A stretch of DNA of 64,000 nt from a phage. The notes under the pieces are model-generated. The model searched no databases. It was not told the DNA's origin and saw only the letters and a program-made list of their open reading frames with translations. This document shows positions 99 to 10,841 of the stretch, one piece after another; position 1 is the stretch's first letter, and every line of letters begins with the position of its first letter. The stretch is taken from the NCBI GenBank assembly GCA_027218345.1, contig GCA_027218345.1_3950.1; one strand, given 5' to 3'. Both the position numbers and the translations under genes were made by a program.

Positions 99-174
99 TG
101 GAGAATCCGAGGGGACTCGAACCCTTGTAAACCTGTCTTGCAGACAGGTACATATCCATTTCTGTCACGGATTC
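99..174 (-). tRNA. tRNA-Cys (anticodon GCA)
   Basis: Minus-strand cloverleaf by hand: encoded CCA, T-loop TTCGAGT, anticodon loop CTGCAAG, acceptor cggattc/gaatccg, discriminator U. Confidence 0.6.
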
Positions 175-178
175 AAAT

Positions 179-271
179 TGGAGGAAGATACCAGACTTGA
201 ACTGGTACACCGATTTCTCAGCTACTGGCAGTTTAGCAAACTGCTCCCTTACCTTTTAGGGTTAATCTTCC
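179..271 (-). tRNA. tRNA-Ser (anticodon GCU), class II
   Basis: 93 nt, encoded CCA, perfect acceptor ggaagat/atcttcc, T-arm ACCAG-TTCAAGT-CTGGT, anticodon loop TTGCTAA, long variable arm. Confidence 0.6.
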
Positions 272-272
272 A

Positions 273-1007
273 TTATTTCTGTAATGCGTTCTTCATTTCT
301 GGTGTTGCAATAGCATCAATTACACCAGTTTTACAAGCATCATCAAACCAGTCTGGTAAGATACCTGCTAAGAACCCATTGATATTCGTTTTAAGGTACT
401 CTGCAATAAGGGCAGCTTCTTCTTCAATCATCTGCACAACTTCATCTGCATAAGCTGTAATCTTTGAAATACCTTCATTAATCTTACTGACAGCTTGGTT
501 AGCTAAATCAGAAACAGTATCAAGACCCTTGTCAATAGCGTCTTGTAAGTCACTTAACACACCATTAACACTATCTAGTGTACTGTTAATCATGTCAATA
601 GCTTTTTGACCATACTCTGTAGCAACACCCATGATACCACTGAATGGTGTACAACCAACTTGTTCTCCTGCTGCACCCATAACATTGGAGTATCCTTTTG
701 CTACCTGCATACGTGATGAAAACTCATCAATAGACTTTTGACCGTAGTCTGTTAGGGTCTTAGTAGTTGCTGTAGTGCTTGTAAGGCTTGTTGTAAAGCT
801 GTTTAGGAGGACTGTTGTAAGTCCAGCAGCAACAAGTTTCTCCTTCATTGTAGGGTCTGTTACAGAGCTAATAGAGCTTACAAGTGATGTAGAGGCAGCT
901 ACGGTTCCGCCGAGAACTGCTGCACCAGTAATAAGTGGGTTAGAAAACCCTTTACCGGTTTTTAAGAGATTAAAAATCTCCTTACCTTGTCCTGTCATCT
1001 CTTTCAT
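273..1007 (-). CDS. hypothetical Ser/Thr/Ala-rich protein inside the tRNA cluster
   Basis: ORF with ATG (MKEMTGQ) preceded by AAGGTG; upstream part of the listed ORF overlaps a tRNA and is dropped. Confidence 0.45.
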   Translation of the reverse strand: MKEMTGQGKEIFNLLKTGKGFSNPLITGAAVLGGTVAASTSLVSSISSVTDPTMKEKLVAAGLTTVLLNSFTTSLTSTTATTKTLTDYGQKSIDEFSSRMQVAKGYSNVMGAAGEQVGCTPFSGIMGVATEYGQKAIDMINSTLDSVNGVLSDLQDAIDKGLDTVSDLANQAVSKINEGISKITAYADEVVQMIEEEAALIAEYLKTNINGFLAGILPDWFDDACKTGVIDAIATPEMKNALQK

Positions 1008-1025
1008 TAAGCACCTTTGAAATTG

Positions 1026-1100
1026 GTAGTCCAGTGGGATTTGAACCCTCTTCTCATGTTTTTCAGACACGCGCTTTAACCATATAAGCTACTTGGACTA
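1026..1100 (-). tRNA. tRNA, probable Phe (anticodon GAA); CCA not encoded
   Basis: Perfect 7-bp acceptor tagtcca/tggacta, T-loop TTCAAAT, anticodon loop CTGAAAA; D-region irregular. Confidence 0.45.
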
Positions 1101-1105
1101 TAAAT

Positions 1106-1181
1106 TGGGGTGACCTACGGGATTTGAACCCGTATAGACCATGTTCACAGCATGGGTCATTACCATTTATGATAAGGCCAC
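1106..1181 (-). tRNA. tRNA-His (anticodon GUG)
   Basis: Encoded CCA, discriminator C, T-arm ACGGG-TTCAAAT-CCCGT, D-stem tcat/atga, anticodon stem ccatg/catgg with loop CTGTGAA. Confidence 0.65.
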
Positions 1182-1212
1182 ATTTAAGGACTCTCGTAAG
1201 AACCCTTAGAAG

Positions 1213-1288
1213 TGGCAGCGGCATAAGGATTTGAACCTTAATAAGACAGCTTCAGAGACTGCTGCATTGCCAGTTATGCTATACCGCT
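1213..1288 (-). tRNA. tRNA-Gln (anticodon CUG)
   Basis: Encoded CCA, discriminator G, T-arm TAAGG-TTCAAAT-CCTTA, D-stem gcat/atgc, anticodon loop CTCTGAA. Confidence 0.5.
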
Positions 1289-1293
1289 AAATT

Positions 1294-1372
1294 TGGTACT
1301 CCATATCGGATTCGAACCGATACATAACACAGATTTTAAGTCTGGCCTCTCTGCCAATTGGAGTAATGGAGC
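1294..1372 (-). tRNA. tRNA, class-I shape, anticodon probably UAA (Leu-type)
   Basis: Encoded CCA, discriminator A, T-arm ATCGG-TTCGAAT-CCGAT, D-loop AATTGGCAGA, anticodon loop CTTAAAA; short variable region. Confidence 0.4.
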
Positions 1373-1374
1373 AT

Positions 1375-1450
1375 TGGCGGGGGATGTTGGAATTGAACCA
1401 ACTTCTTCGATTTCAAAGACCGAGGTTTTAACCTTGTAAACTAATCCCCT
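1375..1450 (-). tRNA. tRNA-Gln (anticodon UUG)
   Basis: Encoded CCA, discriminator G, T-arm GTTGG-TTCAATT-CCAAC, D-stem gttt/aaac, anticodon stem tcggt/atcga with loop CTTTGAA. Confidence 0.55.
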
Positions 1451-1458
1451 TTAAATCT

Positions 1459-2016
1459 TTACTTTCTCAGTGGATGAATAAAGAATGCCAACATAACTCT
1501 TTCCCTTGAGAATGCTCTTTCTTCTGGGACAACACTTTTTAGTTTCCATCCAATATAAATTCTCCAGTAAAATTGTTTACCAAAGATTTTAATTGATGGG
1601 ATAAAAGCGAATAATCCCCAAGCATTCCTGTTCCACATTAGGAGATAACCAGTCTGATTATCTTCAGGGTTAGAACTTACGTTGATATTACCTTTCCACT
1701 TAGTAACATCTTTTACATCTCTTCCTAACACATGGTAAGAGAAGTTATAAGCTTTGTTTCTCCAGAGCCATCCAACTCTCTGCAAATAGACACCTAGCTT
1801 ACCAATCTTTCTAATCTTAGCCCATCTTTTAACGTGGCCTTCATCACCATCAATTGGGTTATCATATGTCTCCATCCATCTGAATCCAAAAGGGAGATGT
1901 CCTTTCTTCTCACTGTAGAATGGAACTACGAAAGGTGCTAAGATGACTGCTAGGGTTGCTGCAAATGGTTCTAGTAAAGCTAGGAAAATCCATGAAGCAT
2001 ACTTCAAATATCTCAT
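1459..2016 (-). CDS. hypothetical protein with N-terminal hydrophobic segment
   Basis: 185-aa ORF between tRNA genes; N-terminal stretch of about 25 hydrophobic residues. Confidence 0.45.
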   Translation of the reverse strand: MRYLKYASWIFLALLEPFAATLAVILAPFVVPFYSEKKGHLPFGFRWMETYDNPIDGDEGHVKRWAKIRKIGKLGVYLQRVGWLWRNKAYNFSYHVLGRDVKDVTKWKGNINVSSNPEDNQTGYLLMWNRNAWGLFAFIPSIKIFGKQFYWRIYIGWKLKSVVPEERAFSRERVMLAFFIHPLRK

Positions 2017-2035
2017 CTAAATAGCCTCTTAAAAT

Positions 2036-2113
2036 TGGTGTTCCAAGACGGATTCGAACCGTCACTAATACAAGGTTTGAGCTTGCATCCTCTGCCAATT
2101 GGGATACTGGAAC
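2036..2113 (-). tRNA. tRNA, class-I shape, anticodon CAA (Leu-type)
   Basis: Encoded CCA, discriminator A, T-arm GACGG-TTCGAAT-CCGTC, acceptor gttccag/ttggaac, D-loop AATTGGCAGA, anticodon stem gcaag/cttgt with loop CTCAAAC, 6-nt variable region. Confidence 0.45.
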
Positions 2114-2114
2114 A

Positions 2115-2189
2115 TGGTACTCACTAAAGGACTTGAACCTTTTTCTTCATCTTGTAAGGGTGATGTTTTACCATATAAACTAAGCGAGT
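2115..2189 (-). tRNA. tRNA-Val (anticodon UAC)
   Basis: Encoded CCA, T-arm AAAGG-TTCAAGT-CCTTT, D-stem gttt/aaac, anticodon loop CTTACAA. Confidence 0.55.
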
Positions 2190-2284
2190 GTGAAAGAGGT
2201 CTGAAGTTGTGCCGCTAACTCAACTCCGTGGAATTTGTTACGGTCTTCAGTTGACACCAGCGGTCTTTCACTTGACCTCTGAAT

Positions 2285-2361
2285 TGGTGCTGCTCACAGG
2301 ACTCGAACCTGCATTTCCATCCTTACAAGGGATGTGTAATAGCCAATTATACGAAAGCAGC
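2285..2361 (-). tRNA. tRNA-Thr (anticodon UGU)
   Basis: Encoded CCA, T-loop TTCGAGT, anticodon stem catcc/ggatg perfect, loop CTTGTAA. Confidence 0.6.
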
Positions 2362-2367
2362 TTTATT

Positions 2368-2442
2368 TGGAGCATCCAGAGGGAATCGAACCCTCAACCT
2401 CAGTTTGGAAGACTGTAATTTTCCCGTTTAAACTATGGATGC
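2368..2442 (-). tRNA. tRNA-Gly (anticodon UCC)
   Basis: Encoded CCA, discriminator U, perfect acceptor gcatcca/tggatgc, T-arm GAGGG-TTCGATT-CCCTC, anticodon loop CTTCCAA. Confidence 0.6.
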
Positions 2443-2448
2443 ACTAAT

Positions 2449-2524
2449 TGGTGGAGAAGCAGGGAATTGAACCCTGTACTTAAGTTTGCAAAACTTATGT
2501 TTTAACCATGTAAACTACATCCCC
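2449..2524 (-). tRNA. tRNA-Ala (anticodon UGC)
   Basis: Encoded CCA, G3:U70 wobble in acceptor, D-stem gttt/aaac, perfect anticodon stem taagt/actta, loop TTTGCAA. Confidence 0.65.
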
Positions 2525-2530
2525 AATGTC

Positions 2531-2606
2531 TGGTACAGGTGGAGGGAATTGAACCCATCGTCTTACTGATTAAGAGTCAGCCGCATAACCATTTTGCTAC
2601 ACCTGC
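2531..2606 (-). tRNA. tRNA-Lys (anticodon CUU)
   Basis: Encoded CCA, discriminator A, T-loop TTCAATT, anticodon loop CTCTTAA; T-stem has mismatches. Confidence 0.5.
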
Positions 2607-2613
2607 ATTAATT

Positions 2614-2690
2614 TGGTACACCTAGAGAGATTCGAACTCACACTGAGCAGATTCTAAGTCTGCTGCCTCTACCAGTTGGGCTATAGGTGC
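2614..2690 (-). tRNA. tRNA, class-I shape, anticodon UAG (Leu-type)
   Basis: Encoded CCA, discriminator A, D-loop AACTGGTAGA, perfect anticodon stem gcaga/tctgc, loop CTTAGAA, 5-nt variable region. Confidence 0.5.
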
Positions 2691-2948
2691 ATTAAATCTT
2701 TTTAGAGAACTTCTAAGAACCTAAGCAACAAGGTTCCACAACAAGCTGTAATAACCTTAGAAGCCCTCTAAAAAGACCTAAAAAGGTCTTTACATAGTCT
2801 TGTTTAATCCGGTGACTAGAACCTTTGGAGAGCTTGATATTATCTCTTCTCCGTGACACCTACTAGGTGCTTTATCAGTGTGTACGACAATACACGAGGG
2901 ATACCAAAGCAACATCCGAATGAAGCTTGGCTTTAAAATCTTATTAGG

Positions 2949-3036
2949 CGGTAAGTAAAGGAGTCGAACCCTCACCGTATCTCTACAGTGGCAACTGTTT
3001 TCAAGACAGTTTGGCTACCATTAGCCGCTACCTACC
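2949..3036 (-). tRNA. tRNA-Ser (anticodon UGA), class II; CCA not encoded
   Basis: 88 nt, discriminator G, anticodon stem actgt/acagt with loop CTTGAAA, long variable arm, T-loop TTCGACT. Confidence 0.55.
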
Positions 3037-3049
3037 CCTAATAAGACTT

Positions 3050-3132
3050 TGGCATGGGACGGAGGAGTTGAACCCCTTTGAAACGGTGTTGGAAGCCGTT
3101 GCTCATGTCTTAGAGTCTTAACATCGTCCCAC
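3050..3132 (-). tRNA. tRNA, non-canonical 83 nt, anticodon possibly CCA (Trp)
   Basis: Encoded CCA, discriminator G, acceptor gtgggac/gtcccat, T-loop TTCAACT; D region enlarged, fold uncertain. Confidence 0.4.
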
Positions 3133-3275
3133 ACTATAATTCGAAGCTTACCGTATTATCTCAACACTGTAAAGCCCCTTCTCAGATTATTTACATGTTC
3201 TGGAAAACATGAGATACAGACCACCTCCCTACAGGAAGACCCGCTTAGGTCGTCTAAGTAATCTGCTAACTAAAT

Positions 3276-3357
3276 TGGTCGAGGCGGCAGGACTCGAACC
3301 CGCATACTCCACTTACTCGGTTAACGGCTGTTTAGAAGACAGCTGAGATACGCCCCG
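3276..3357 (-). tRNA. tRNA-Arg-like (anticodon UCU), non-canonical architecture
   Basis: Encoded CCA, acceptor cggggcg/cgcctcg, T-arm GCGGG-TTCGAGT-CCTGC, stem-loop gctgt-CTTCTAA-acagc; no normal D-arm found and about 23 nt before the T-arm. Confidence 0.4.
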
Positions 3358-3561
3358 TAATTATCTTTAAAGACTCTCTTAGAAAGCCCTTAAAGATGCC
3401 CACCTTATTAATCATACCGTGGGCGAGTACGCCAAATTCTTTGATGAGGGGTTGGAAGACCTCACTGGTGTTTAGCCTATCAAGCTACTGCCAGAAAAAC
3501 ATTGTCGTTTGCATTTATTTTAAATTTGCAAAATAGACGCTACGCAACGAAAACTAAGGTT

Positions 3562-3590
3562 ACTATAAAGTAGTCACATCTCAGTGTCAA
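3562..3590 (-). promoter_or_regulatory. sigma70-like promoter candidate inside the tRNA cluster
   Basis: On minus strand TTGACA, 17 nt, TATAGT. Confidence 0.35.
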
Positions 3591-3605
3591 CAACTTTATT
3601 GAAAT

Positions 3606-3683
3606 TGGTACTGTGAGAAGGATTCGAACCTTCTGCCTTTCGGTTATCAGCCGAATGCACATCCATATGTGCTAACCCACAAT
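3606..3683 (-). tRNA. tRNA-Ile (anticodon GAU)
   Basis: Encoded CCA, perfect T-arm GAAGG-TTCGAAT-CCTTC, D-arm gcac-ATATGGAT-gtgc, anticodon stem ttcgg/ccgaa with loop CTGATAA; acceptor pairs only with a 4-nt connector. Confidence 0.5.
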
Positions 3684-3760
3684 TGGAGGTTCAGATGGGA
3701 TTCAAACCCACATTCATAGGGCTTATGAGACCCTTGCATTACCTTATCTGCGACTGAACC
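3684..3760 (-). tRNA. tRNA-Met or Ile2 (anticodon CAU)
   Basis: Encoded CCA, perfect acceptor ggttcag/ctgaacc, T-loop TTTGAAT, anticodon stem agggt/gccct with loop CTCATAA. Confidence 0.55.
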
Positions 3761-3764
3761 ATTT

Positions 3765-3840
3765 TGGTAGAAGTGGAGGGATTCGAACCCATCGCCTTTC
3801 AGATTAAAAGTCTGCCGCATCACCATTCTGCTACACTTCC
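3765..3840 (-). tRNA. tRNA-Lys (anticodon UUU)
   Basis: Encoded CCA, discriminator A, T-loop TTCGAAT, anticodon loop CTTTTAA. Confidence 0.55.
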
Positions 3841-3846
3841 ATTAAA

Positions 3847-3986
3847 TTATCTTTGTAGATAAGCTACCCAGACTTGCTTAAGGTCTGTAGCGATGTGCCT
3901 TTTTGGGTTTAAATCTAGAATTTACCCTTTCACCCTTTGTGGTCGCATACTCACAGGTAAGCTTAATAACTTATCTACAAAGATAA
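3847..3986. repeat. pair of identical 16-bp palindromic hairpins in inverted orientation flanking 108 bp
   Basis: TTATCTTTGTAGATAA at 3847-3862 and its reverse complement at 3971-3986. Confidence 0.6.
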
Positions 3987-4268
3987 TTACCAGACCGTTG
4001 TTTATCATCTTAAGTGCTACCATTACACCAACTCGACATCTGCCGAGTGAAGGAATCGAACCTTCGCCTTTTCTTTACCGAGAAATAGATTGTTTAAGTT
4101 TTGCTGTAAACGGTCTTCTGTAAATTTGTTGAGCCAGACCAAGTTTTAAATTTTTCAAAATTAAATTGGCTTGAAATTTTAAGTAACTTGCTGTATTTGG
4201 TCTTCTGCTCCTTTAAAGGATGCTCGTAAGAACCCTTTAAGGGAGGGGCTAAATAGCCCTCTCAAAAT

Positions 4269-4343
4269 TGGCGAGGTGTGCGAGAATCGAACTCGCGGCT
4301 CAGGAGAGACAATCCAGTATTTTACCCGTCTAAACTAACACCC
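4269..4343 (-). tRNA. tRNA, probable Asp (anticodon GUC)
   Basis: Encoded CCA, discriminator G, perfect T-arm GCGAG-TTCGATT-CTCGC, D-stem gttt/aaat, anticodon loop TTGTCTC with one stem mismatch. Confidence 0.45.
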
Positions 4344-4350
4344 CAAAACC

Positions 4351-4779
4351 CTATGTACCATTTCTTAAGTACTTTTCTTTGCGTCTTGCTGAATTATAGT
4401 ATTTACGCCCTTCAGCATTTTTAGAAAGCCTACAAGCCTCACACCTGCATCCTCTTCTATAACCAGAAACTGTACCATGTTTAATTGGTGTGTACTTCCT
4501 TTCACCAATCTGTTTTGGTCTTGTTGCTTTCGAGTTACAGTGTATGTGGCTATATGAGATGTTATCTAGTGAAAAGAAAAGCTCTTTTGCATTTTCACTA
4601 TGTCTCCACGGAGTCTTATGCTCAATAGAGAAATCATCCCTAGTCATTTCTTTCCCGCACTGAAAACATCTATTTTGATTTGTTTTACATATAAAATCAA
4701 ATAGTAAATCTTTTACTAGCCTGTTTTGTGCAGTTCCTAAACTCATACCAAGCTGTGATTTGTATACTTCATCTCTCAT
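4351..4779 (-). CDS. HNH homing endonuclease
   Basis: HNH/zinc motifs CFQCGKE...IEHKTPW...SHIHCN and C-terminal CxC cluster; embedded in tRNA cluster; internal ATG start preferred over TTG. Confidence 0.65.
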   Translation of the reverse strand: MRDEVYKSQLGMSLGTAQNRLVKDLLFDFICKTNQNRCFQCGKEMTRDDFSIEHKTPWRHSENAKELFFSLDNISYSHIHCNSKATRPKQIGERKYTPIKHGTVSGYRRGCRCEACRLSKNAEGRKYYNSARRKEKYLRNGT

Positions 4780-4802
4780 GACTAAGTATCTCAATAAGTG
4801 TT

Positions 4803-4890
4803 TGGTGTGCCGTGTAGGAGTCGAACCTACCGAGTCTCAATGACAAGGGATTTACAGTCCCCACCGCTACCATCTACGGGATAACGACAC
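4803..4890 (-). tRNA. tRNA-Tyr (anticodon GUA), class II
   Basis: 88 nt, encoded CCA, perfect T-arm GTAGG-TTCGACT-CCTAC, anticodon stem-loop gggga-CTGTAAA-tccct, long variable arm. Confidence 0.6.
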
Positions 4891-4899
4891 ATTTAAATT

Positions 4900-4976
4900 T
4901 GGCGGTTAGTCAGGGATTCGAACCCTGTGCCATTCGCTTAACAGGCGACCGCACATACCTTATGTGCTTCCTAACC
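4900..4976 (-). tRNA. tRNA-Asn (anticodon GUU)
   Basis: Encoded CCA, discriminator G, perfect T-arm CAGGG-TTCGAAT-CCCTG, D-stem gcac/gtgc, anticodon loop CTGTTAA. Confidence 0.55.
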
Positions 4977-5053
4977 TTAATACATTGCCAGACCGTGTTT
5001 TTTCTTTTATCCGCAAAAAGTATTTTGTTGCTGAATACGGTCTTCTGCAAAAT

Positions 5054-5130
5054 TGGAGGCGGGTGCAGGAGTCGAACCTGCCGATACCATGCTAATGAGA
5101 CATGTGAGACGCCCTTTCTCTATACCCGCA
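5054..5130 (-). tRNA. tRNA-Met or Ile2 (anticodon CAU), second copy
   Basis: Encoded CCA, perfect T-arm GCAGG-TTCGACT-CCTGC, anticodon stem catgt/gcatg with loop CTCATTA; T1:C72 mismatch. Confidence 0.5.
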
Positions 5131-5221
5131 ATTCTTAATGACCAGACCAAATCTCTTCTTTGTCCGATTTACCTTCAGATGAATAAGATTAAGTTTGCTG
5201 TAATTGGTCTTCTGTCAAAAC

Positions 5222-5299
5222 TGGCGTTCCAGAAGGGATTTGAACCCTCAAATATCCACTTTGAAAGAGTGGTGACTTTACCATTTTGTCTACTGGAAC
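5222..5299 (-). tRNA. tRNA-Glu (anticodon UUC)
   Basis: Encoded CCA, discriminator G, perfect acceptor gttccag/ctggaac, T-loop TTCAAAT, perfect anticodon stem ccact/agtgg, loop CTTTCAA. Confidence 0.55.
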
Positions 5300-5306
5300 A
5301 TTAATT

Positions 5307-5382
5307 TGGTCTCTGTTGGAGGACTTGAACCTCCGGCCTTACCGCCCCAAACGGAACGCTCTACCAAGCTGAGCTAAACAGA
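5307..5382 (-). tRNA. tRNA-Pro (anticodon UGG)
   Basis: Encoded CCA, perfect acceptor ctctgtt/aacagag, D-arm gctc-AGCTTGGTA-gagc, T-arm GGAGG-TTCAAGT-CCTCC, anticodon loop TTTGGGG. Confidence 0.6.
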
Positions 5383-5548
5383 GATAAACTTTTCAAACTC
5401 TATGTAACCACTTTAACATTATTTTTTAGTGGTTGTCAAGAACTTTTTAAAATATTTTTCAGTATCTTAGAAAAGCTCTCATTTCGTTTCTATGTAGAAC
5501 ATATTAAAGGGTATCAAACACATTGTCAATACCCTTTTTTAAAACTTT

Positions 5549-6964
5549 TTACCAGATGTAACGGTCAATCATTACTGCTTTGAGCATTACGCTGATTGGG
5601 TCAAACTTCTCACCACCAAGCAGAGCTTTTAAAGTGGCTGGAGAGAAACCAGATACCATTGCTACACCGTTATCCTTAACAGACACTTCGCAAGTGCCAT
5701 TACGGTTTGCTAAGTACCAGAATACCAGTTGTGGCATCTCATATCCAGCTTTTTTGTACTTACTCTGAATTGCTTCAAAGTTTGTACGACCGTTAGCTCC
5801 ATCAACCTGATTGAACTCCATATCAGAGAAGATGATAAGCTTACTTGGCATATCTTTCTGAGTCAAGTTGTTTCTCTTACCTGTCTCAAGGATGCGGTCA
5901 AAAGCTGCTTGTAAGTTAGTTGAACCGTATTCAACATGTCGCATTACCTGACGGTGACGGTTCTTTAAATCGCCACTCAGTTCGATGAAATGAGGGTTTG
6001 TTGAATAAACCATTAACTCGTTCTTAAAGCAACCTGTATTGCGTTCTGCTACATACAAGGCAAGTGATACACCAATATCAAGGGCAGTAATTGAGCCAAA
6101 ATTCACCCAAGACATTGAACTTGAAACATCAGACATACATAGAATGTTTTCACCCTCTGCCATCCAGTTTGGTAGTGCTTTCCACTGCTCATTAGCAACA
6201 TCTGCATTACCATACTTAACAGATTTAATCACATCGTATGGGTAAACAGCACCAGCATTAATCTTAGTCTCACCTTTTGATAAAGACTCAATGTAAGCTT
6301 TGTAGCGTTCTCCATCTTTACGGTTAAACAGTTTTTGGTAACGTGCAGCAGCAAGTGAAGGAATCTTACTGTAGTCAATCTTACCAAACTCATTAGCAGA
6401 GATTTTTTGCTCAACCGTATCAGATAGTGCAGACAACAGTGTGCGGTACTCTTTCTCACTTAAGTTTGCAAACTTACAGAAACGTTTTACAAACTGCTTA
6501 TGACGTGGTTTGACTCGTGGTAACCACTTAGCTGCTAAACCTGCTGTTGCAGGGTCTAGTAATGCTGCTTCTAAATGTTTGAAGGCATCTGTCTCGAAAC
6601 GAGTACCTACGAAGATTTTGAAGTCATCAAAACGACCAAGTTCTGCAATCTTATCCATAATGCGAAGAACCTGTGTAGGCTCTAAAACTTTATCTTCAAT
6701 CGCTTGAAGCAAAACTGTTCTGAAGGCTTTACGCTCACCCATGCCTTCTCGTACATCTCGCATATGCAGTAAAATACGAACTGCAACATCAACATCCTCA
6801 CGCAAAGCTTTGTAGAACAGGTCTGGTAAGATTTCTACATTGCTACGGCTTGAACCAGCAGCTTTGTAAAAGTCTACAAGAGCAGACATTGATGAAGTAT
6901 GGTTTACAGCACCATTTTCAGTTCGACCTGCATGAAGGTGCGCATGTTTAAATAACTCGCTCAT
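5549..6964 (-). CDS. vWA-domain protein with MIDAS motif (DUF2828-like)
   Basis: 471-aa ORF; DxSxS motif (MSDVSSSM) followed by vWA-like hydrophobic strands. Confidence 0.6.
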   Translation of the reverse strand: MSELFKHAHLHAGRTENGAVNHTSSMSALVDFYKAAGSSRSNVEILPDLFYKALREDVDVAVRILLHMRDVREGMGERKAFRTVLLQAIEDKVLEPTQVLRIMDKIAELGRFDDFKIFVGTRFETDAFKHLEAALLDPATAGLAAKWLPRVKPRHKQFVKRFCKFANLSEKEYRTLLSALSDTVEQKISANEFGKIDYSKIPSLAAARYQKLFNRKDGERYKAYIESLSKGETKINAGAVYPYDVIKSVKYGNADVANEQWKALPNWMAEGENILCMSDVSSSMSWVNFGSITALDIGVSLALYVAERNTGCFKNELMVYSTNPHFIELSGDLKNRHRQVMRHVEYGSTNLQAAFDRILETGKRNNLTQKDMPSKLIIFSDMEFNQVDGANGRTNFEAIQSKYKKAGYEMPQLVFWYLANRNGTCEVSVKDNGVAMVSGFSPATLKALLGGEKFDPISVMLKAVMIDRYIW

Positions 6965-7045
6965 ATTTTACTCTCTTCTCTCATTTGGTGTTTGATGTGA
7001 CAGACTTTAGAGCAATTTTGTAGAGTCTGTCAACATCTTTTAAAA

Positions 7046-7417
7046 TTATTTTTTAAGCGTTGCTACAGCAGAGAACGTTGGTTTGTTATCTGTCTGAGAC
7101 TGACCACCATTATCAGGAGTCTTCTTAGTGTCTGCTGCAAGTGCTTTCATCTCACCTGCTGAGTGAGTAAAGATAGTTTTACCGACCTCAATCATACTCT
7201 TGATGGTTACGTCATCTGTGTTTAACCCGAACTCTGCAAGCTTAGCCGCGTCCCTTGTAACAATCGCCTCAAACAGCTTTGCAGCGAACTCAGCAGAATT
7301 ATCAATGGTCAGTTGAGCTTTTACGAGTGAGCTTTTGTTACGAGAGCCTTTTGGTCTTCCAGATGGGTTTCCAGACTGGCCTTTTTTAAACTGGCCTTTG
7401 TTTGTTCTGTTTTTCAT
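7046..7417 (-). CDS. hypothetical protein (GNPSGRPKG motif)
   Basis: 123-aa ORF, basic N-terminus. Confidence 0.5.
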   Translation of the reverse strand: MKNRTNKGQFKKGQSGNPSGRPKGSRNKSSLVKAQLTIDNSAEFAAKLFEAIVTRDAAKLAEFGLNTDDVTIKSMIEVGKTIFTHSAGEMKALAADTKKTPDNGGQSQTDNKPTFSAVATLKK

Positions 7418-7644
7418 TGGTATGCCTCTTATAAGACCTCTTAAAAGGCTTTTAAGATAAAAGATAGATATCCAGAAAGATATCTGTTTAAATAGCCTTT
7501 TTAGAGGAACCTTTTAAGTTATCTTCTAAGTATTTAGAAGCCTACACCTTGTCAAGTACTTTGTCAACAACTTTTTTAACTTGCAATAGTTCTTGACTTG
7601 TTGTATGGATTACTGTACCATCTTACTTAAGCTGTAGGTCTGCC
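7418..7644. promoter_or_regulatory. divergent promoter region between minus and plus gene blocks
   Basis: Intergenic, AT-rich, multiple TTGACA/TTGTCA hexamers including CACCTTGTCAAGTACTTTGTCAAC. Confidence 0.4.
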
Positions 7645-7808
7645 TTGTTCTACAAAGGAGACTTAATGAGAAAATCAAATAACCCGAAGAAAGGTAAAAA
7701 TACCAATCACTGTAAGGAATCAAAAAGGGTAGAGTTACTCTACTATTCATCCTCTGAAATTGGTCTGTACCTGTTCTTTCAAAATTACAGAAGACAAGAG
7801 GATTATCT

Positions 7809-8042
7809 ATGTGTAGTTCCCAATTAGAAATCGCAGATATTATAGATTTATATAAAACTGCAAAGAGTCATGGCTATATAACCTCAATTGGAAAGAATAG
7901 TCACTACGATGCTTTGACTGGAATGTATTTCAGGGCAATGGCTCAATCTAGTGAACAACACTTAATGGTTTCTTCCAGTGAGTTTACTTCGTTTCTCTAT
8001 TGCAGCAAAATTATAAATCGCAGGAGAACTGAAAAATGTTAA
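7809..8042 (+). CDS. hypothetical protein
   Basis: 77-aa ORF, first of plus-strand block. Confidence 0.3.
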   Translation: MCSSQLEIADIIDLYKTAKSHGYITSIGKNSHYDALTGMYFRAMAQSSEQHLMVSSSEFTSFLYCSKIINRRRTEKC

Positions 8043-8626
8043 CAGTAAGTTTTAATTACAATAGTGATGGCTCTGTATCAATTAATTCACCATATGCAAA
8101 TGACCTGCTTAAAGAGCTAGTCAATCAGTGTGATAGAGGTCTTCACTATGTTCAAAATTCTTTTAAACAGAAGACTATTGCTAATAACTTGATGCGTGTA
8201 ACAGTAACGGCATCGAATCCAAATTATGACTTTGATAGTGAAAGTCCGTACTCATTAGTTGCGCTTGGAGAGAGCAGACAATTCAAACTTGTTTGCCACG
8301 ACTCAGAAACATTCCTTAAGGTCTTTTCCAACCTTATCCATAATAATAAGTACAGCTACGTTGATGGTAGTGTAAATTTCTATCCAGCAAACTATACATG
8401 TTTGTTGGTTGATAATATGAGAAAAAGTAAGCAAGAGCCTACGGAAATTTCATTTGATGTGAACTCTAGTCCAGACGCAGAAACAAGTAAGAACTTTGAT
8501 ATGAGTTACGCATTGTCACTCAGTAAGAAATCCGAGTTCATTGATTATGTCAATGGATTTGGTTTTAAGTTTGATGAGAGTATGAATCTTAAAAAACTTA
8601 AGAACCTACTTAAGACCAAAGCTTAA
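8036..8626 (+). CDS. hypothetical protein
   Basis: 196-aa ORF followed by a hairpin terminator. Confidence 0.5.
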   Translation: MLTVSFNYNSDGSVSINSPYANDLLKELVNQCDRGLHYVQNSFKQKTIANNLMRVTVTASNPNYDFDSESPYSLVALGESRQFKLVCHDSETFLKVFSNLIHNNKYSYVDGSVNFYPANYTCLLVDNMRKSKQEPTEISFDVNSSPDAETSKNFDMSYALSLSKKSEFIDYVNGFGFKFDESMNLKKLKNLLKTKA

Positions 8627-8634
8627 GTGTGAAT

Positions 8635-8662
8635 AGGGGCTGATGCCCCTTTAACTATTTAT
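8635..8662 (+). terminator. candidate terminator hairpin
   Basis: AGGGGCTGATGCCCCT then T-rich tail. Confidence 0.4.
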
Positions 8663-8673
8663 AAGGATATTTA

Positions 8674-9045
8674 ATGAAAGCTAAGAGTGCAAAAGACTTT
8701 TATTGCTTCCTACAATCCTATATCAATTCCGTGCAAAATGGTGAAAGGTACAACCTTAATGATGTTATTCCAACACCTTTGACATGGAGACTCAGTAAAT
8801 GGCCTGAAGAAGATATTACACCAACAATCGAACAACGCACCTACAAACCCGAAATCAATATTCCAGACTCTGAGAATCTATTATATCCAATGTTCCATAT
8901 TGTTGGTCTTGGAAGATTCCTTATGGATATCCAGTATGTAATTGGTAAAGGTTATAAGGTTAAAGGTATTGTTGTTGGTGATGTATCTCCACAACATAAA
9001 GGCTATTTTAGATTAAACGCACGTTTAGAGGCTAAAAAGAAATGA
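8674..9045 (+). CDS. hypothetical protein, paralog of the N-terminal domain of the next gene
   Basis: Shares YKPE/YKPD, LLYP/LLYS and FLMDIQYVIGKG/FFMDLQYAIINGK motifs with the 9042 ORF. Confidence 0.55.
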   Translation: MKAKSAKDFYCFLQSYINSVQNGERYNLNDVIPTPLTWRLSKWPEEDITPTIEQRTYKPEINIPDSENLLYPMFHIVGLGRFLMDIQYVIGKGYKVKGIVVGDVSPQHKGYFRLNARLEAKKK

Positions 9046-9926
9046 TTAAAGCAAAGACTTACCCAGACTTCAAAGAATTTGTAAAGGGTTTCATTGCAAA
9101 TGTAAAGGCTGGTAAGAGGTATGATTTTAGAACATATCAAGAGGCTATTTTACCACTTACCTATAGCTCGTATTGGCCTGAAGCTGATATTGCAGAAGTT
9201 GAGAAGTTTGACTATAAACCAGACTATAAAGTTCCATTTAGTGATGAGTTGCTTTACAGTGTTGGTGCTCAAATGAGAACTTCTGACTTCTTCATGGACT
9301 TACAATATGCAATTATCAATGGCAAAGACGTTGATACAGTTTATTGTGAATGGCTGGCAAGAGTTAAACCATTCTCAATGTTGAATGCTAAGTTGAAGGA
9401 CGCTATCAAGCCACCATCAATCACTCAGCAACCAACCAATCAAACAGTAAATGAAGGTGGTACACTTACCCTAAGCGTTATTGCAACTAATGCCACTGGA
9501 TATCAATGGAAAAAGGATGGTGAGGATATCACTAGCGCCACATCTGCAACCTACACAAAACAGTCTGTAGCACCTTCTGATGCTGGTTCTTATACTTGTG
9601 TTGTGTCTGGAGAGGCTGGTACAAGTGTTACCTCAGATGCGGCAACAGTTACTGTTAACGCACTGCCTGTTATTACACAGCAGCCTTCTGGTCAGACTAT
9701 CAATGAGGGCGGAAACATCAACTTGGTAGTGGCTGCAACAGGTGCAACAGGTTACCAGTGGAAGAAAGGTGAGGAAGATATCCTCGATGCAACCGCTGCA
9801 ACTTACACTAAAGAAGGTGCAACCGCTGCTGATTCAGGAAGCTACACCTGTGTAGTTACTGGTGCAGGTGGCTCTGTAACATCTAACGCAGCAACAGTTA
9901 CAGTTAATCCAGCAGGGGAGGCATAA
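9042..9926 (+). CDS. Ig-like domain protein (two tandem Ig-like repeats)
   Basis: Two ~90-aa repeats each with GYQWKK...ATYTK...SYTCVV...ATVTVN pattern typical of Ig-like folds. Confidence 0.6.
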   Translation: MIKAKTYPDFKEFVKGFIANVKAGKRYDFRTYQEAILPLTYSSYWPEADIAEVEKFDYKPDYKVPFSDELLYSVGAQMRTSDFFMDLQYAIINGKDVDTVYCEWLARVKPFSMLNAKLKDAIKPPSITQQPTNQTVNEGGTLTLSVIATNATGYQWKKDGEDITSATSATYTKQSVAPSDAGSYTCVVSGEAGTSVTSDAATVTVNALPVITQQPSGQTINEGGNINLVVAATGATGYQWKKGEEDILDATAATYTKEGATAADSGSYTCVVTGAGGSVTSNAATVTVNPAGEA

Positions 9927-10390
9927 TGCAACTCTCAAGAAAAGGCTTAGAAGCTATTAAGTTCTTTGAAGGTCTTAAGTTAGAGGCTTACGAAGACTCT
10001 GCCGGAATCCCAACAATCGGGTATGGTACAGTCCGTATTGACGGAAAACCTGTTAAGATGGGTATGAAAATTACTGCTGAACAAGCTGAGCAGTATCTTC
10101 TCGCAGATGTTGAAAAGTTCGTTGCAGCAGTGAACAAAGCCATCAAGGTTCCAACTTCTCAGAACGAGTTTGATGCACTTGTAAGTGAAACATACAACAT
10201 TGGTATCACAGCTATGCAGGACTCTACATTTATCAAGCGCCACAACGCTGGTAATAAGGTAGGTTGTGCAGAAGCTATGCAGTGGTGGAACAAGGTTACA
10301 GTCAAAGGTCAGAAGGTCACTTCAAACGGCCTGAAAAACAGACGTAGAATGGAAGCTGACATTTATCTTGACAGTGTATACCCAAAGTAA
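9926..10390 (+). CDS. endolysin, T4-type lysozyme (GH24)
   Basis: N-terminal FEG...YEDSAGIPTIGYGT catalytic region of phage lysozymes; terminator hairpin immediately downstream. Confidence 0.8.
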   Translation: MQLSRKGLEAIKFFEGLKLEAYEDSAGIPTIGYGTVRIDGKPVKMGMKITAEQAEQYLLADVEKFVAAVNKAIKVPTSQNEFDALVSETYNIGITAMQDSTFIKRHNAGNKVGCAEAMQWWNKVTVKGQKVTSNGLKNRRRMEADIYLDSVYPK

Positions 10391-10399
10391 TATCTTCAT

Positions 10400-10428
10400 A
10401 GGCTCCTTCGGGAGCCTTTTTTTATTTT
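10400..10428 (+). terminator. rho-independent terminator after endolysin
   Basis: Hairpin AGGCTCCTTCGGGAGCCT followed by T7 run. Confidence 0.6.
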
Positions 10429-10442
10429 CTAAGGAGAAAACT

Positions 10443-10841
10443 ATGAAGCTTTGGGCTAGTGACTTTGGGACTTTTAAGTACACTCGTAATGGTTCGCTTG
10501 TACGCATTGTTGGAAACAATGTGGTTTCAAGAGGCGACAAGGTGTATACACGGTTCACTGTAGAGCTTGTTGAACTGTCACCTATTGAGTCTGTGAACAA
10601 TGGCCTGTTCAAGTTTGAGACTTACAATGTCAATGAGCATGGGCAATTCAACCCTCTTGGTGAAAGTGGACTTGATATTATTTCAGAACACCCGTTGACA
10701 AAAGAGCAACTTGCAAGTTATTATAAAACTGTTCTTGAAAGGCAGTTAGCAACACATGAACAAGAAGCTAACTACCATTTACAACATTGCGAAATTTTAA
10801 GAGAAAAAATCGAACAAGCAGAGAGAGGTTTTTATGAATAA
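10443..10841 (+). CDS. hypothetical protein
   Basis: ORF starting MKLWASD with strong AAGGAG RBS. Confidence 0.5.
   Translation: MKLWASDFGTFKYTRNGSLVRIVGNNVVSRGDKVYTRFTVELVELSPIESVNNGLFKFETYNVNEHGQFNPLGESGLDIISEHPLTKEQLASYYKTVLERQLATHEQEANYHLQHCEILREKIEQAERGFYE

Follow-up and report, generated by a model that had tools for sequence, protein, structure and literature searches.

The window discussed here, a 64,000-nucleotide stretch of phage DNA (contig GCA_027218345.1_3950.1 of GenBank assembly GCA_027218345.1), contains a cluster of transfer RNA (tRNA) genes, three of which carry the leucine anticodons UAA, CAA and UAG and lack the long variable arm of class II tRNAs. To judge from its sequence, the window is a Felixounavirus genome (Felix O1-like myoviruses of the subfamily Ounavirinae): its first 6 kb give more than 300 matches to phage records, the top ones being Salmonella and Escherichia Felixounavirus phages that are about 95% identical over the full length. 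All 24 tRNAs called by ARAGORN in the window lie in the cluster and on the minus strand, and most of them have an encoded CCA (Table 1). GenBank records of relatives already carry the annotation 'tRNA-Leu (x3)' at the corresponding positions. The three genes are type I tRNA-Leu genes, new and well-conserved examples of a type that has been described but has attracted little notice.

Table 1. Features of the tRNA cluster, with positions numbered from the first nucleotide of the window
Feature	Position	Strand	Remarks
Phage tRNA gene cluster	99..5383	-	24 tRNAs called by ARAGORN, with small open reading frames (ORFs) between them
tRNA-Ser(GCU)	179..271	-	93 nucleotides (nt); class II comparator that keeps the long arm (ARAGORN)
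tRNA-Leu(UAA)	1294..1372	-	79 nt including encoded CCA; type I shape (ARAGORN, Rfam, parse)
DUF7338 ORF inside the tRNA cluster	1459-2016		Occupies the slot of tRNA-Arg(ACG) in phage Sf14
tRNA-Leu(CAA)	2036..2113	-	78 nt including encoded CCA; type I shape (ARAGORN, Rfam, parse)
tRNA-Leu(UAG)	2614..2690	-	77 nt including encoded CCA; type I shape (ARAGORN, Rfam, parse)
tRNA-Ser(UGA)	2947..3036	-	90 nt; class II comparator (ARAGORN)
HNH endonuclease ORF inside the tRNA cluster	4351-4794		
tRNA-Tyr(GUA)	4803..4890	-	88 nt; class II comparator (ARAGORN)

A first-pass annotation, based on folding by hand, had placed the three tRNAs and their anticodons exactly where ARAGORN calls them. It had described short cloverleaves with discriminator A73, Leu-like D loops and the anticodon loops CTTAAAA (UAA), CTCAAAC (CAA) and CTTAGAA (UAG), all of which a position-by-position parse reproduces, with lengths of 79, 78 and 77 nt and variable regions of 7, 6 and 5 nt, respectively; a long class II arm is present in none of them. 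ARAGORN and Rfam alike accept the three as tRNAs with these anticodons and short arms. The Rfam RF00005 scores are 47.5 bits for Leu(UAA), 44.0 for Leu(CAA) and 57.3 for Leu(UAG), with E-values from 5e-8 to 1e-10 and a gathering score of 29. Class II tRNA-Ser and tRNA-Tyr had also been seen in the cluster, next to a lack of class II tRNA-Leu; ARAGORN indeed returns Ser genes of 93 and 90 nt and a Tyr gene of 88 nt, and it calls no long-armed tRNA-Leu in the whole 64 kb.

The acceptor stem of tRNA-Leu(UAA), GCTCCAT/ATGGAGT, has a G1.U72 wobble and is followed by A73. Its 3-base-pair (bp) D stem CTC/GAG closes the D region CAATTGGCAGA, the anticodon stem CCAGA/TCTGT contains a C27.U43 mismatch, and the variable region GTTATGT, with U48 as its last nucleotide, leads into the T arm ATCGG-TTCGAAT-CCGAT. 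tRNA-Leu(CAA) has the acceptor stem GTTCCAG/TTGGAAC with A73, the D stem TCC/GGA around the same D region CAATTGGCAGA, the anticodon stem GCAAG/CTTGT, the variable region ATTAGT, again ending in U48, and the T arm GACGG-TTCGAAT-CCGTC. In tRNA-Leu(UAG), the acceptor stem GCACCTA/TAGGTGT with G1.U72 and A73 is combined with the D stem GCC/GGC, the D region CAACTGGTAGA, the anticodon stem GCAGA/TCTGC, an anticodon loop with A at position 37 and the variable region TCAGT, whose last nucleotide is once more U48. Its T arm GTGAG-TTCGAAT-CTCTC has a U50.U64 mismatch that also occurs in Cronobacter phage CR3. A hairpin-free variable loop of at least 5 nt, nucleotide 48 included, is the criterion for type I; the loops of the three genes have 5-7 nt.

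RNAfold does poorly on the single sequences, since it gives no cloverleaf for Leu(UAA) and only weak z-scores (-0.16 to -1.8), and the fold was therefore assessed by comparison. In an alignment of 33 distinct short tRNA-Leu from many phages, 97.6% of the cells pair in a class I cloverleaf with a 3-bp D stem, and 19 of the 20 pairs show compensatory change. None of 500 shuffles reaches the observed pairing and no slid register comes near it. The class I cloverleaf of the short tRNA-Leu is thus not a chance fold. U8, A14, G18, G19, U33, A35, U48, the core of the T loop and A73 are invariant throughout the alignment, A15 is at least 90% conserved, and G1.U72 recurs in 13 of the 33. A covariance model (R1) built from 25 short phage tRNA-Leu, with every Ounavirinae sequence left out, ranks the three genes first to third in the cluster, with 84.2 bits for Leu(UAG), 71.1 for Leu(UAA) and 68.3 for Leu(CAA); the best of the other 21 cluster tRNAs is tRNA-Glu (60.3 bits), and the remainder score 53 or less.

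The genes are also well kept. In Sf14, a Shigella phage of the sister genus Mooglevirus, their counterparts have equal lengths and are 98.7% (UAA), 100% (CAA) and 98.7% (UAG) identical, which places the three among the best conserved tRNAs of the cluster between Felixounavirus and Mooglevirus. The Gly, Ala and Lys(CUU) tRNAs of the window, like Leu(CAA), are 100% identical to those of Sf14, and the Asp, Tyr, Ile and Thr tRNAs 63-78%. Copies of Leu(UAG) that are 100% identical occur in many Felixounavirus records. That the three might be decaying pseudogenes, former class II tRNA-Leu damaged by deletions, is hardly credible in view of 98.7-100% identity across genera against 63-85% for neighbouring tRNAs, of Rfam scores well above the threshold and of the same architecture, with compensatory changes, in unrelated phages. 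What can be said for decay is that a stem mismatch or wobble pair is found in each gene and that truncated and aberrant tRNA remnants lie in the same cluster.

According to a review of tRNA identity, E. coli leucyl-tRNA synthetase (LeuRS) requires A73, A15-U48, G18G19 and A20a, whereas the long arm is dispensable; tRNA-Leu variants without the long arm or without the anticodon arm remain active (PMC9976931). U8, A14, A15, U48 and A73 are found in all three tRNA-Leu of the window, as are the U8:A14 pair and the A15:U48 Levitt pair. Each has a D arm of the leucine type, with a 3-bp stem, G18G19 placed as in E. coli tRNA-Leu, and A20a; the D region CAAYTGGYAGA equals the E. coli sequences GAATCGGTAGA and AAATTGGTAGA in length and register. 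All three T loops read TTCGAAT, and the elbow pairs G18:U55, G19:C56 and U54:A58 are possible. Within the cluster, A14, A15, U48 and A73 occur together only in these three and in tRNA-Thr, which has a normal 4-bp D stem, unlike the three. More broadly, the motif AAYYGGNARA at position 14 is carried by 69% of long tRNA-Leu not chosen by the search pattern and by about 3% of pooled non-Leu tRNAs, where it stands in a 4-bp D-stem context.

LeuRS and the alanyl- and seryl-tRNA synthetases (AlaRS, SerRS) ignore the anticodon, so that codon reading and amino acid identity can in principle be uncoupled. The anticodons UAA, CAA and UAG are without the nucleotides used by IleRS, LysRS, ArgRS, MetRS, ValRS and PheRS. 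The first-pass annotation had accordingly set two readings side by side, unusual short-arm tRNA-Leu or tRNAs that read leucine codons with another identity. The first is borne out by the LeuRS features listed above and by the Sf14 counterparts, for which leucine comes first in the isotype models of tRNAscan-SE: 60.2 for Leu_TAA (next Lys, 54.2), 49.1 for Leu_CAA (next Lys, 36.1) and 67.4 for Leu_TAG (next Ile2, 65.7) (Sf14 study, 2025). The second, in which another amino acid would be delivered to leucine codons by phage-directed recoding or mistranslation, is very improbable and finds no support in the genes themselves. Their 3:70 pairs are U:A, U:A and A:U, with no G3:U70 for AlaRS, and the long arm and G73 that would suit SerRS are lacking, all three having A73. 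Furthermore, leucine is the top isotype for each, and a D arm of the leucine type is rare among non-Leu tRNAs (about 3%, as given above). The closeness of Ile2, Lys and Arg in the isotype scores of Leu(UAG) is the one result that leans towards a different amino acid.

The E. coli K-12 genes leuZ (UAA), leuX (CAA) and leuW (UAG) have the same anticodons as the phage three and share much of their architecture: a 7-bp acceptor stem followed by U8, a 3-bp D stem with position 13 unpaired against A22, an 11-nt D region NAAYYGGYAGA, a variable region ending in GU48, A73 and CCA. The G1.U72 wobble of the phage UAA and UAG species has its counterpart in leuZ. The variable region has 13-15 nt and a hairpin in E. 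coli versus 5-7 nt in the phage. Stem sequences are unrelated between phage and E. coli, and the UAG anticodon loops differ at three positions (CUUAGAA with A37 in the phage, UUUAGGU with G37 in leuW). Since the variable region is the only architectural difference between host and phage, the phage genes look, on sequence grounds, like tRNA-Leu minus the arm and not like some other class I tRNA that has acquired a leucine anticodon. Whole-sequence similarity with the anticodon masked also puts Leu nearest for all three, although the discrimination is weak.

Bacterial tRNA-Leu is normally class II, as the first-pass annotation had supposed, and exceptions have been published for Streptomyces coelicolor and for a mycobacterial tRNA cluster. 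The type I tRNA-Leu(CAA) of S. coelicolor has a 5-nt variable loop and is charged by a single LeuRS beside the type II species (PMC6614811). Like the phage tRNAs it is of type I; 5 nt proved to be the minimal workable loop and U8:A14 to be important (PMC6614811). Its loop ACAGC (A44-C45-A46-G47-C48) is similar to the NCAGU loops that are frequent among the phage tRNAs. It differs in being chromosomal, in belonging to an actinomycete and in having C48 where the phage tRNAs have U48; moreover, for S. coelicolor LeuRS A73 is not an identity element and C74 is used instead, whereas the phage tRNAs carry the E. coli-type identity set. The short phage tRNA-Leu would likewise coexist during infection with the type II tRNA-Leu and the single LeuRS of the host. 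In mycobacteria, a one-sentence remark mentions a tRNA-Leu(UAG) with a short variable loop in a tRNA cluster (Behra et al., BMC Evol Biol 2019, PMC6582537). Here too the setting is a mobile-looking array with an HNH endonuclease, and the housekeeping isoacceptor is long-looped (PMC6582537), but the host phylum is not that of the phage.

Two further comparisons can be made outside natural bacterial tRNAs. Engineered arm-less or minimalist E. coli tRNA-Leu are LeuRS substrates as long as A73 and the tertiary contacts between D and T loops are kept (Asahara 1993 and 1998, Larkin 2002, as summarised in PMC9976931); these are laboratory constructs, whereas the phage three are natural conserved genes. 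Animal mitochondrial tRNA-Leu(UUR) is likewise of type I, with an identity that rests on A73 and A14 (PMC9976931). It is served by an organellar LeuRS and often has a floppy, degenerate core, in contrast to the canonical bacterial core of the phage tRNAs. Neither the Streptomyces paper, which does not mention phages, nor the mycobacterial one draws a link to phages (PMC6614811, PMC6582537), and the Sf14 study (2025) never mentions the variable arm. A search of the full-text literature, in which subscription journals are thinly covered, found no paper on short-armed tRNA-Leu in Felixounavirus or in phages generally.

The short form is nevertheless widespread. A blastn search with Leu(UAG) against 50,697 phage genomes gave near-full-length, ungapped matches annotated as tRNA-Leu in Bxz1-like mycobacteriophages and in Streptomyces, Gordonia and Pseudomonas phages, with further matches in Certrevirus-like phages of Cronobacter, Klebsiella and Enterobacter, in Enterococcus Schiekvirus and in one crAss-like phage. 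In several such phages that were inspected, short tRNA-Leu of 74-78 nt adjoin long tRNA-Ser and tRNA-Tyr; a Bxz1-like mycobacteriophage has three short tRNA-Leu, and a T4-like Pectobacterium phage has one of 76 nt. Taken together, the shape occurs in phages of Actinomycetota, Bacillota and Pseudomonadota, in crAss-like phages and in bacterial tRNA arrays. The tRNA-Leu(UAG) of T5 is a class II molecule of 85 nt and T4 is also class II in this respect, so that the older biochemistry would not have met the short form. Recent capture from the host was rejected as an origin: blastn with Leu(UAG) against 5,426 complete E. coli genomes found no similar sequence.

Arm loss also has a marked preference for leucine. 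In IMG/VR, a scan with the pattern AATTGGTAGA-N9-YTTAGR, which covers the D loop and the UAG anticodon loop only and is blind to arm length, found at least 120 loci, and 57 among the matches listed have at least five tRNAs. Among the tRNAs of these 57 loci, 17 of 95 tRNA-Leu are short (78 nt or less without CCA) and 78 have a long arm, as against 0 of 48 short tRNA-Ser and 1 of 19 short tRNA-Tyr. A scan of bacteria, one genome per species, used a pattern matched only by short-armed tRNA-Leu(UAG) and gave at least 89 that ARAGORN calls, 68 of which sit in tRNA arrays, that is, in 8-kb stretches with at least five tRNAs. Among the matches listed, the arrays contain 127 short and 16 long tRNA-Leu, 0 short and 67 long tRNA-Ser, and 2 short and 34 long tRNA-Tyr; the genomes belong to Acidobacteriota (Pyrinomonadaceae, Terriglobales), Actinomycetota, Planctomycetota, Myxococcota, Bacteroidota and others. 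Both counts come from pattern-selected samples and are not a census, but within these samples the asymmetry is clear and arm loss is essentially confined to Leu as opposed to Ser and Tyr.

Outside the variable region, the identity between some short genes and long-armed ones is 84-93% (93% for the pair L051 and L107), which points to recent, independent arm losses. The lineage of the window, with C13 and variable loops NCAGU or AUGUU, is nearer to other short genes than to any long one, and this suggests an old short-armed lineage that circulates among phages. Short tRNA-Leu(UAG) were also seen as single genes in Pseudonocardia and other actinomycetes, again among the matches listed. A separate observation concerns Enterococcus phage Bop (L128), whose short tRNA-Leu(UAG) at 4993-5068, if its acceptor stem is read as 7 bp, apparently has G3.U70, the pair that marks alanine identity; a long-armed tRNA-Leu(UAA) and an annotated transfer-messenger RNA (tmRNA) lie in the same tRNA cluster.

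We consider it likely, with a probability of about 0.8, that the three genes are functional type I phage tRNA-Leu that are charged by the LeuRS of the host and supply decoding of UUA, UUG and CUA. Each would be a host-style tRNA-Leu from which the variable-arm hairpin has been removed. They would be transcribed within the phage tRNA operon, processed by host enzymes, leucylated by the single LeuRS of the host, in this case that of E. coli or Salmonella, and used in translation, the UAA species reading UUA and UUG, the CAA species UUG, and the UAG species CUA and other CUN codons. A phage LeuRS was looked for and rejected: no ORF of the window is long enough (about 860 amino acids), and none of the seven ORFs of at least 400 amino acids matches a synthetase family, two of them matching no Pfam family at all. 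With no synthetase among these ORFs, charging must fall to the host enzyme.

A need for such tRNAs can be read from the codon usage. The GC content of the window is 38.8%, and its 64 non-overlapping ORFs of at least 100 codons spell leucine as UUA (24%), UUG (15%), CUU (27%), CUC (8%), CUA (11%) and CUG (15%). In E. coli, CUG accounts for about 50% of leucine codons and CUA for about 4%. The three anticodons thus cover codons that are commoner in the phage than in the host, the host frequencies being general background values. The Sf14 study (2025) similarly classed its three tRNA-Leu as consistent with codon compensation. That tRNA-Leu could lose the arm, while tRNA-Ser and tRNA-Tyr largely could not, would follow from LeuRS being the only synthetase of bacterial class II tRNAs that does without it. 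Because SerRS and TyrRS need the arm, their tRNAs keep it, which fits the asymmetry between Leu and Ser/Tyr. On the simplest account, bacterial LeuRS can dispense with the arm, so that compact phage tRNA genes could lose it repeatedly.

Several observations weigh against a function as leucine tRNAs charged by the host. The type I tRNA-Leu(CAA) of S. coelicolor was not charged by E. coli LeuRS (Wang, NAR 2019, PMC6614811), an enzyme that the same paper describes as charging type II tRNA-Leu only. Work cited there has the C-terminal domain of the E. coli enzyme contact nucleotides 47f-47i of the variable arm, a contact that would be lost in the phage tRNAs. The codon-supply argument leans on general background values for the host codon frequencies. 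As to Leu(UAG), whole-sequence similarity puts Arg and Lys close behind Leu, and the isotype scores of the Sf14 study put Leu just ahead of Ile2, Lys and Arg. Finally, the genes have small flaws, namely C27.U43 in Leu(UAA) and U50.U64 and A37 for G37 in Leu(UAG), the last of which would leave this tRNA without m1G37. The failure of the E. coli enzyme on the S. coelicolor tRNA may not transfer to the phage tRNAs, because the former has C48 where the latter have A15:U48 and because the identity set of S. coelicolor LeuRS is different.

The same failed charging of a natural Streptomyces type I tRNA-Leu (PMC6614811) could be taken to mean that the three RNAs are poor substrates of the host LeuRS and act as decoys or sponges, or as processing signals of the operon. 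The cluster does hold several non-canonical tRNA-like elements missed by standard finders, and T5 has annotated tRNA-like stable RNAs of unknown function. Such a role is nonetheless quite unlikely. In the anticodon loop U33 and A35 never vary, and the set contains leucine anticodons only; no element of the LeuRS identity set is missing, the genes encode CCA and have intact tRNA cores, and their anticodons complement the codon usage of the phage. A decoy would hardly need A73, A15:U48 and three distinct leucine anticodons, all of which are kept across genera.

Another explanation accepts the three as leucine tRNAs and disputes only why the arm is missing. Removal of the arm would hide tRNA-Leu from toxins that recognise class II tRNAs or the host tRNA-Leu while leaving it chargeable, and the phage could go on translating leucine codons once the host tRNA-Leu has been inactivated. 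T4 infection triggers cleavage of the host tRNA-Leu1, and human SLFN11 targets type II tRNAs. Two studies report that phage tRNAs evade anticodon nucleases by sequence changes (eLife 2023, Nat Commun 2024), and the abortive-infection toxin AbiEii has been suggested to prefer class II tRNAs (2026 preprint). A paper on bacterial Schlafen proteins was set aside as support for class II specificity, since the cleavage it reports, in the anticodon arm of tRNAs for Lys, Met, Ala and others, shows no preference for class II. Consistent with escape are the three differences between the phage and host UAG loops and the concentration of short tRNA-Leu in phages and mobile tRNA arrays. However, no toxin directed against tRNA-Leu or class II tRNAs is known for the Salmonella and E. 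coli hosts of Felixounavirus, and a class II-specific toxin would still cripple translation, as tRNA-Ser and tRNA-Tyr keep their arms in the same arrays. Most of the sampled phage tRNA-Leu are long-armed (78 of 95 among the matches listed), that of T5 included, and the neutral loss of an arm that is dispensable accounts for this pattern too. That arm loss evolved as an escape from nucleases or nucleotidyltransferase toxins aimed at class II tRNAs or tRNA-Leu (AbiEii/MenT-like or Schlafen-like toxins, or the tRNA-Leu cleavage that phages induce), with the corollary that enterobacterial LeuRS charges type I tRNA-Leu, therefore seems improbable, though less so than the other alternatives. If true, charging by an enterobacterial LeuRS would contradict the only published cross-species test.

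The rest of the cluster, whose gene content turns over between the sister genera (window 99-5383 versus Sf14 6152-10763), holds tRNA-like elements of less regular form. One of 81 nt lies at about 3279-3357 (minus strand), in the syntenic slot of a canonical tRNA-Arg(UCU) in Sf14. It has a 7-bp acceptor stem, an invariant G-UAUCUCA, a 5-bp stem with the loop CUUCUAA (anticodon UCU), a 23-nt variable region, a normal T arm, A or G as discriminator and an encoded CCA, but no recognisable D arm. It is missed by ARAGORN and by the Rfam tRNA model, matches just the tRNA-Sec model of Rfam with 23 bits, and is unannotated in all GenBank records examined. Besides occurring in Felixounavirus, the element has copies with 85-88% identity in T4-like phages, Klebsiella phages, Listeria-labelled phages, Justusliebigvirus (about 145 kb) and jumbo phages (about 350 kb). 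In 16 variants taken together, pairing extends to 99.1% of the cells, compensatory change is seen in 13 pairs, and not one of 500 shuffles does equally well. It is probably a non-canonical tRNA-Arg(UCU).

A second element not called by the finders, at 3049-3132 (minus strand), has the acceptor stem GTGGGAC/GTCCCAT with G73 and CCA, a T arm, an anticodon-like loop that contains CCA (Trp-like) and is closed by a C.A mismatch, and an oversized D region without GG; it is about 90% conserved in Sf14 and scores 15.5 bits with R1. At 4041-4114 (minus strand), a weak match of 13 bits to the tRNA model comprises the T arm GAAGG-TTCGATT-CCTTC and the 3' strand of an acceptor stem and is probably a truncated remnant of which the 3' half alone is left. 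The non-coding stretch 3359-3595 (minus strand), which lies between tRNA-Ile and the UCU element, is about 90% conserved in Sf14. Rfam matches it weakly to tmRNA (15.9 bits, E=0.0024) and to permuted tmRNA (21 bits); no tmRNA is called in it by ARAGORN.

Directly downstream of the cluster on the coding strand, an ORF of 471 amino acids (5549-6964, minus strand) matches Pfam DUF2828 and DUF7788 and PHROG 850 ('RNA-binding protein'), and it is annotated in relatives as an RNA-binding or vWFA protein. In Streptomyces phage StarPlatinum, a 'Ro-like RNA binding protein' adjoins the tRNA cluster of that phage. A phmmer search of the ORF against PDB sequences, made as a check for Ro60, gave no match. 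Its product may be a Ro60/TROVE-like protein, and odd tRNA-like RNAs could be its partners.

Throughout a large group of phages of E. coli and Salmonella, the three short tRNA-Leu show strict conservation, and they possess the full identity set of E. coli LeuRS, whereas textbooks and the sole biochemical study of a bacterial type I tRNA-Leu treat the short-armed form as a rarity. Annotation pipelines already say tRNA-Leu, so that re-annotation is needless. The genes also offer a ready-made compact tRNA-Leu scaffold. They raise the questions whether enterobacterial LeuRS charges such tRNAs and whether loss of the arm is an escape from tRNA-directed immunity. The recurrence of the short shape in bacterial arrays and in phages of four or more bacterial phyla, in sets where tRNA-Ser never and tRNA-Tyr almost never lacks the arm, amounts to a natural experiment, whose outcome is consistent with an arm that is dispensable for bacterial LeuRS.

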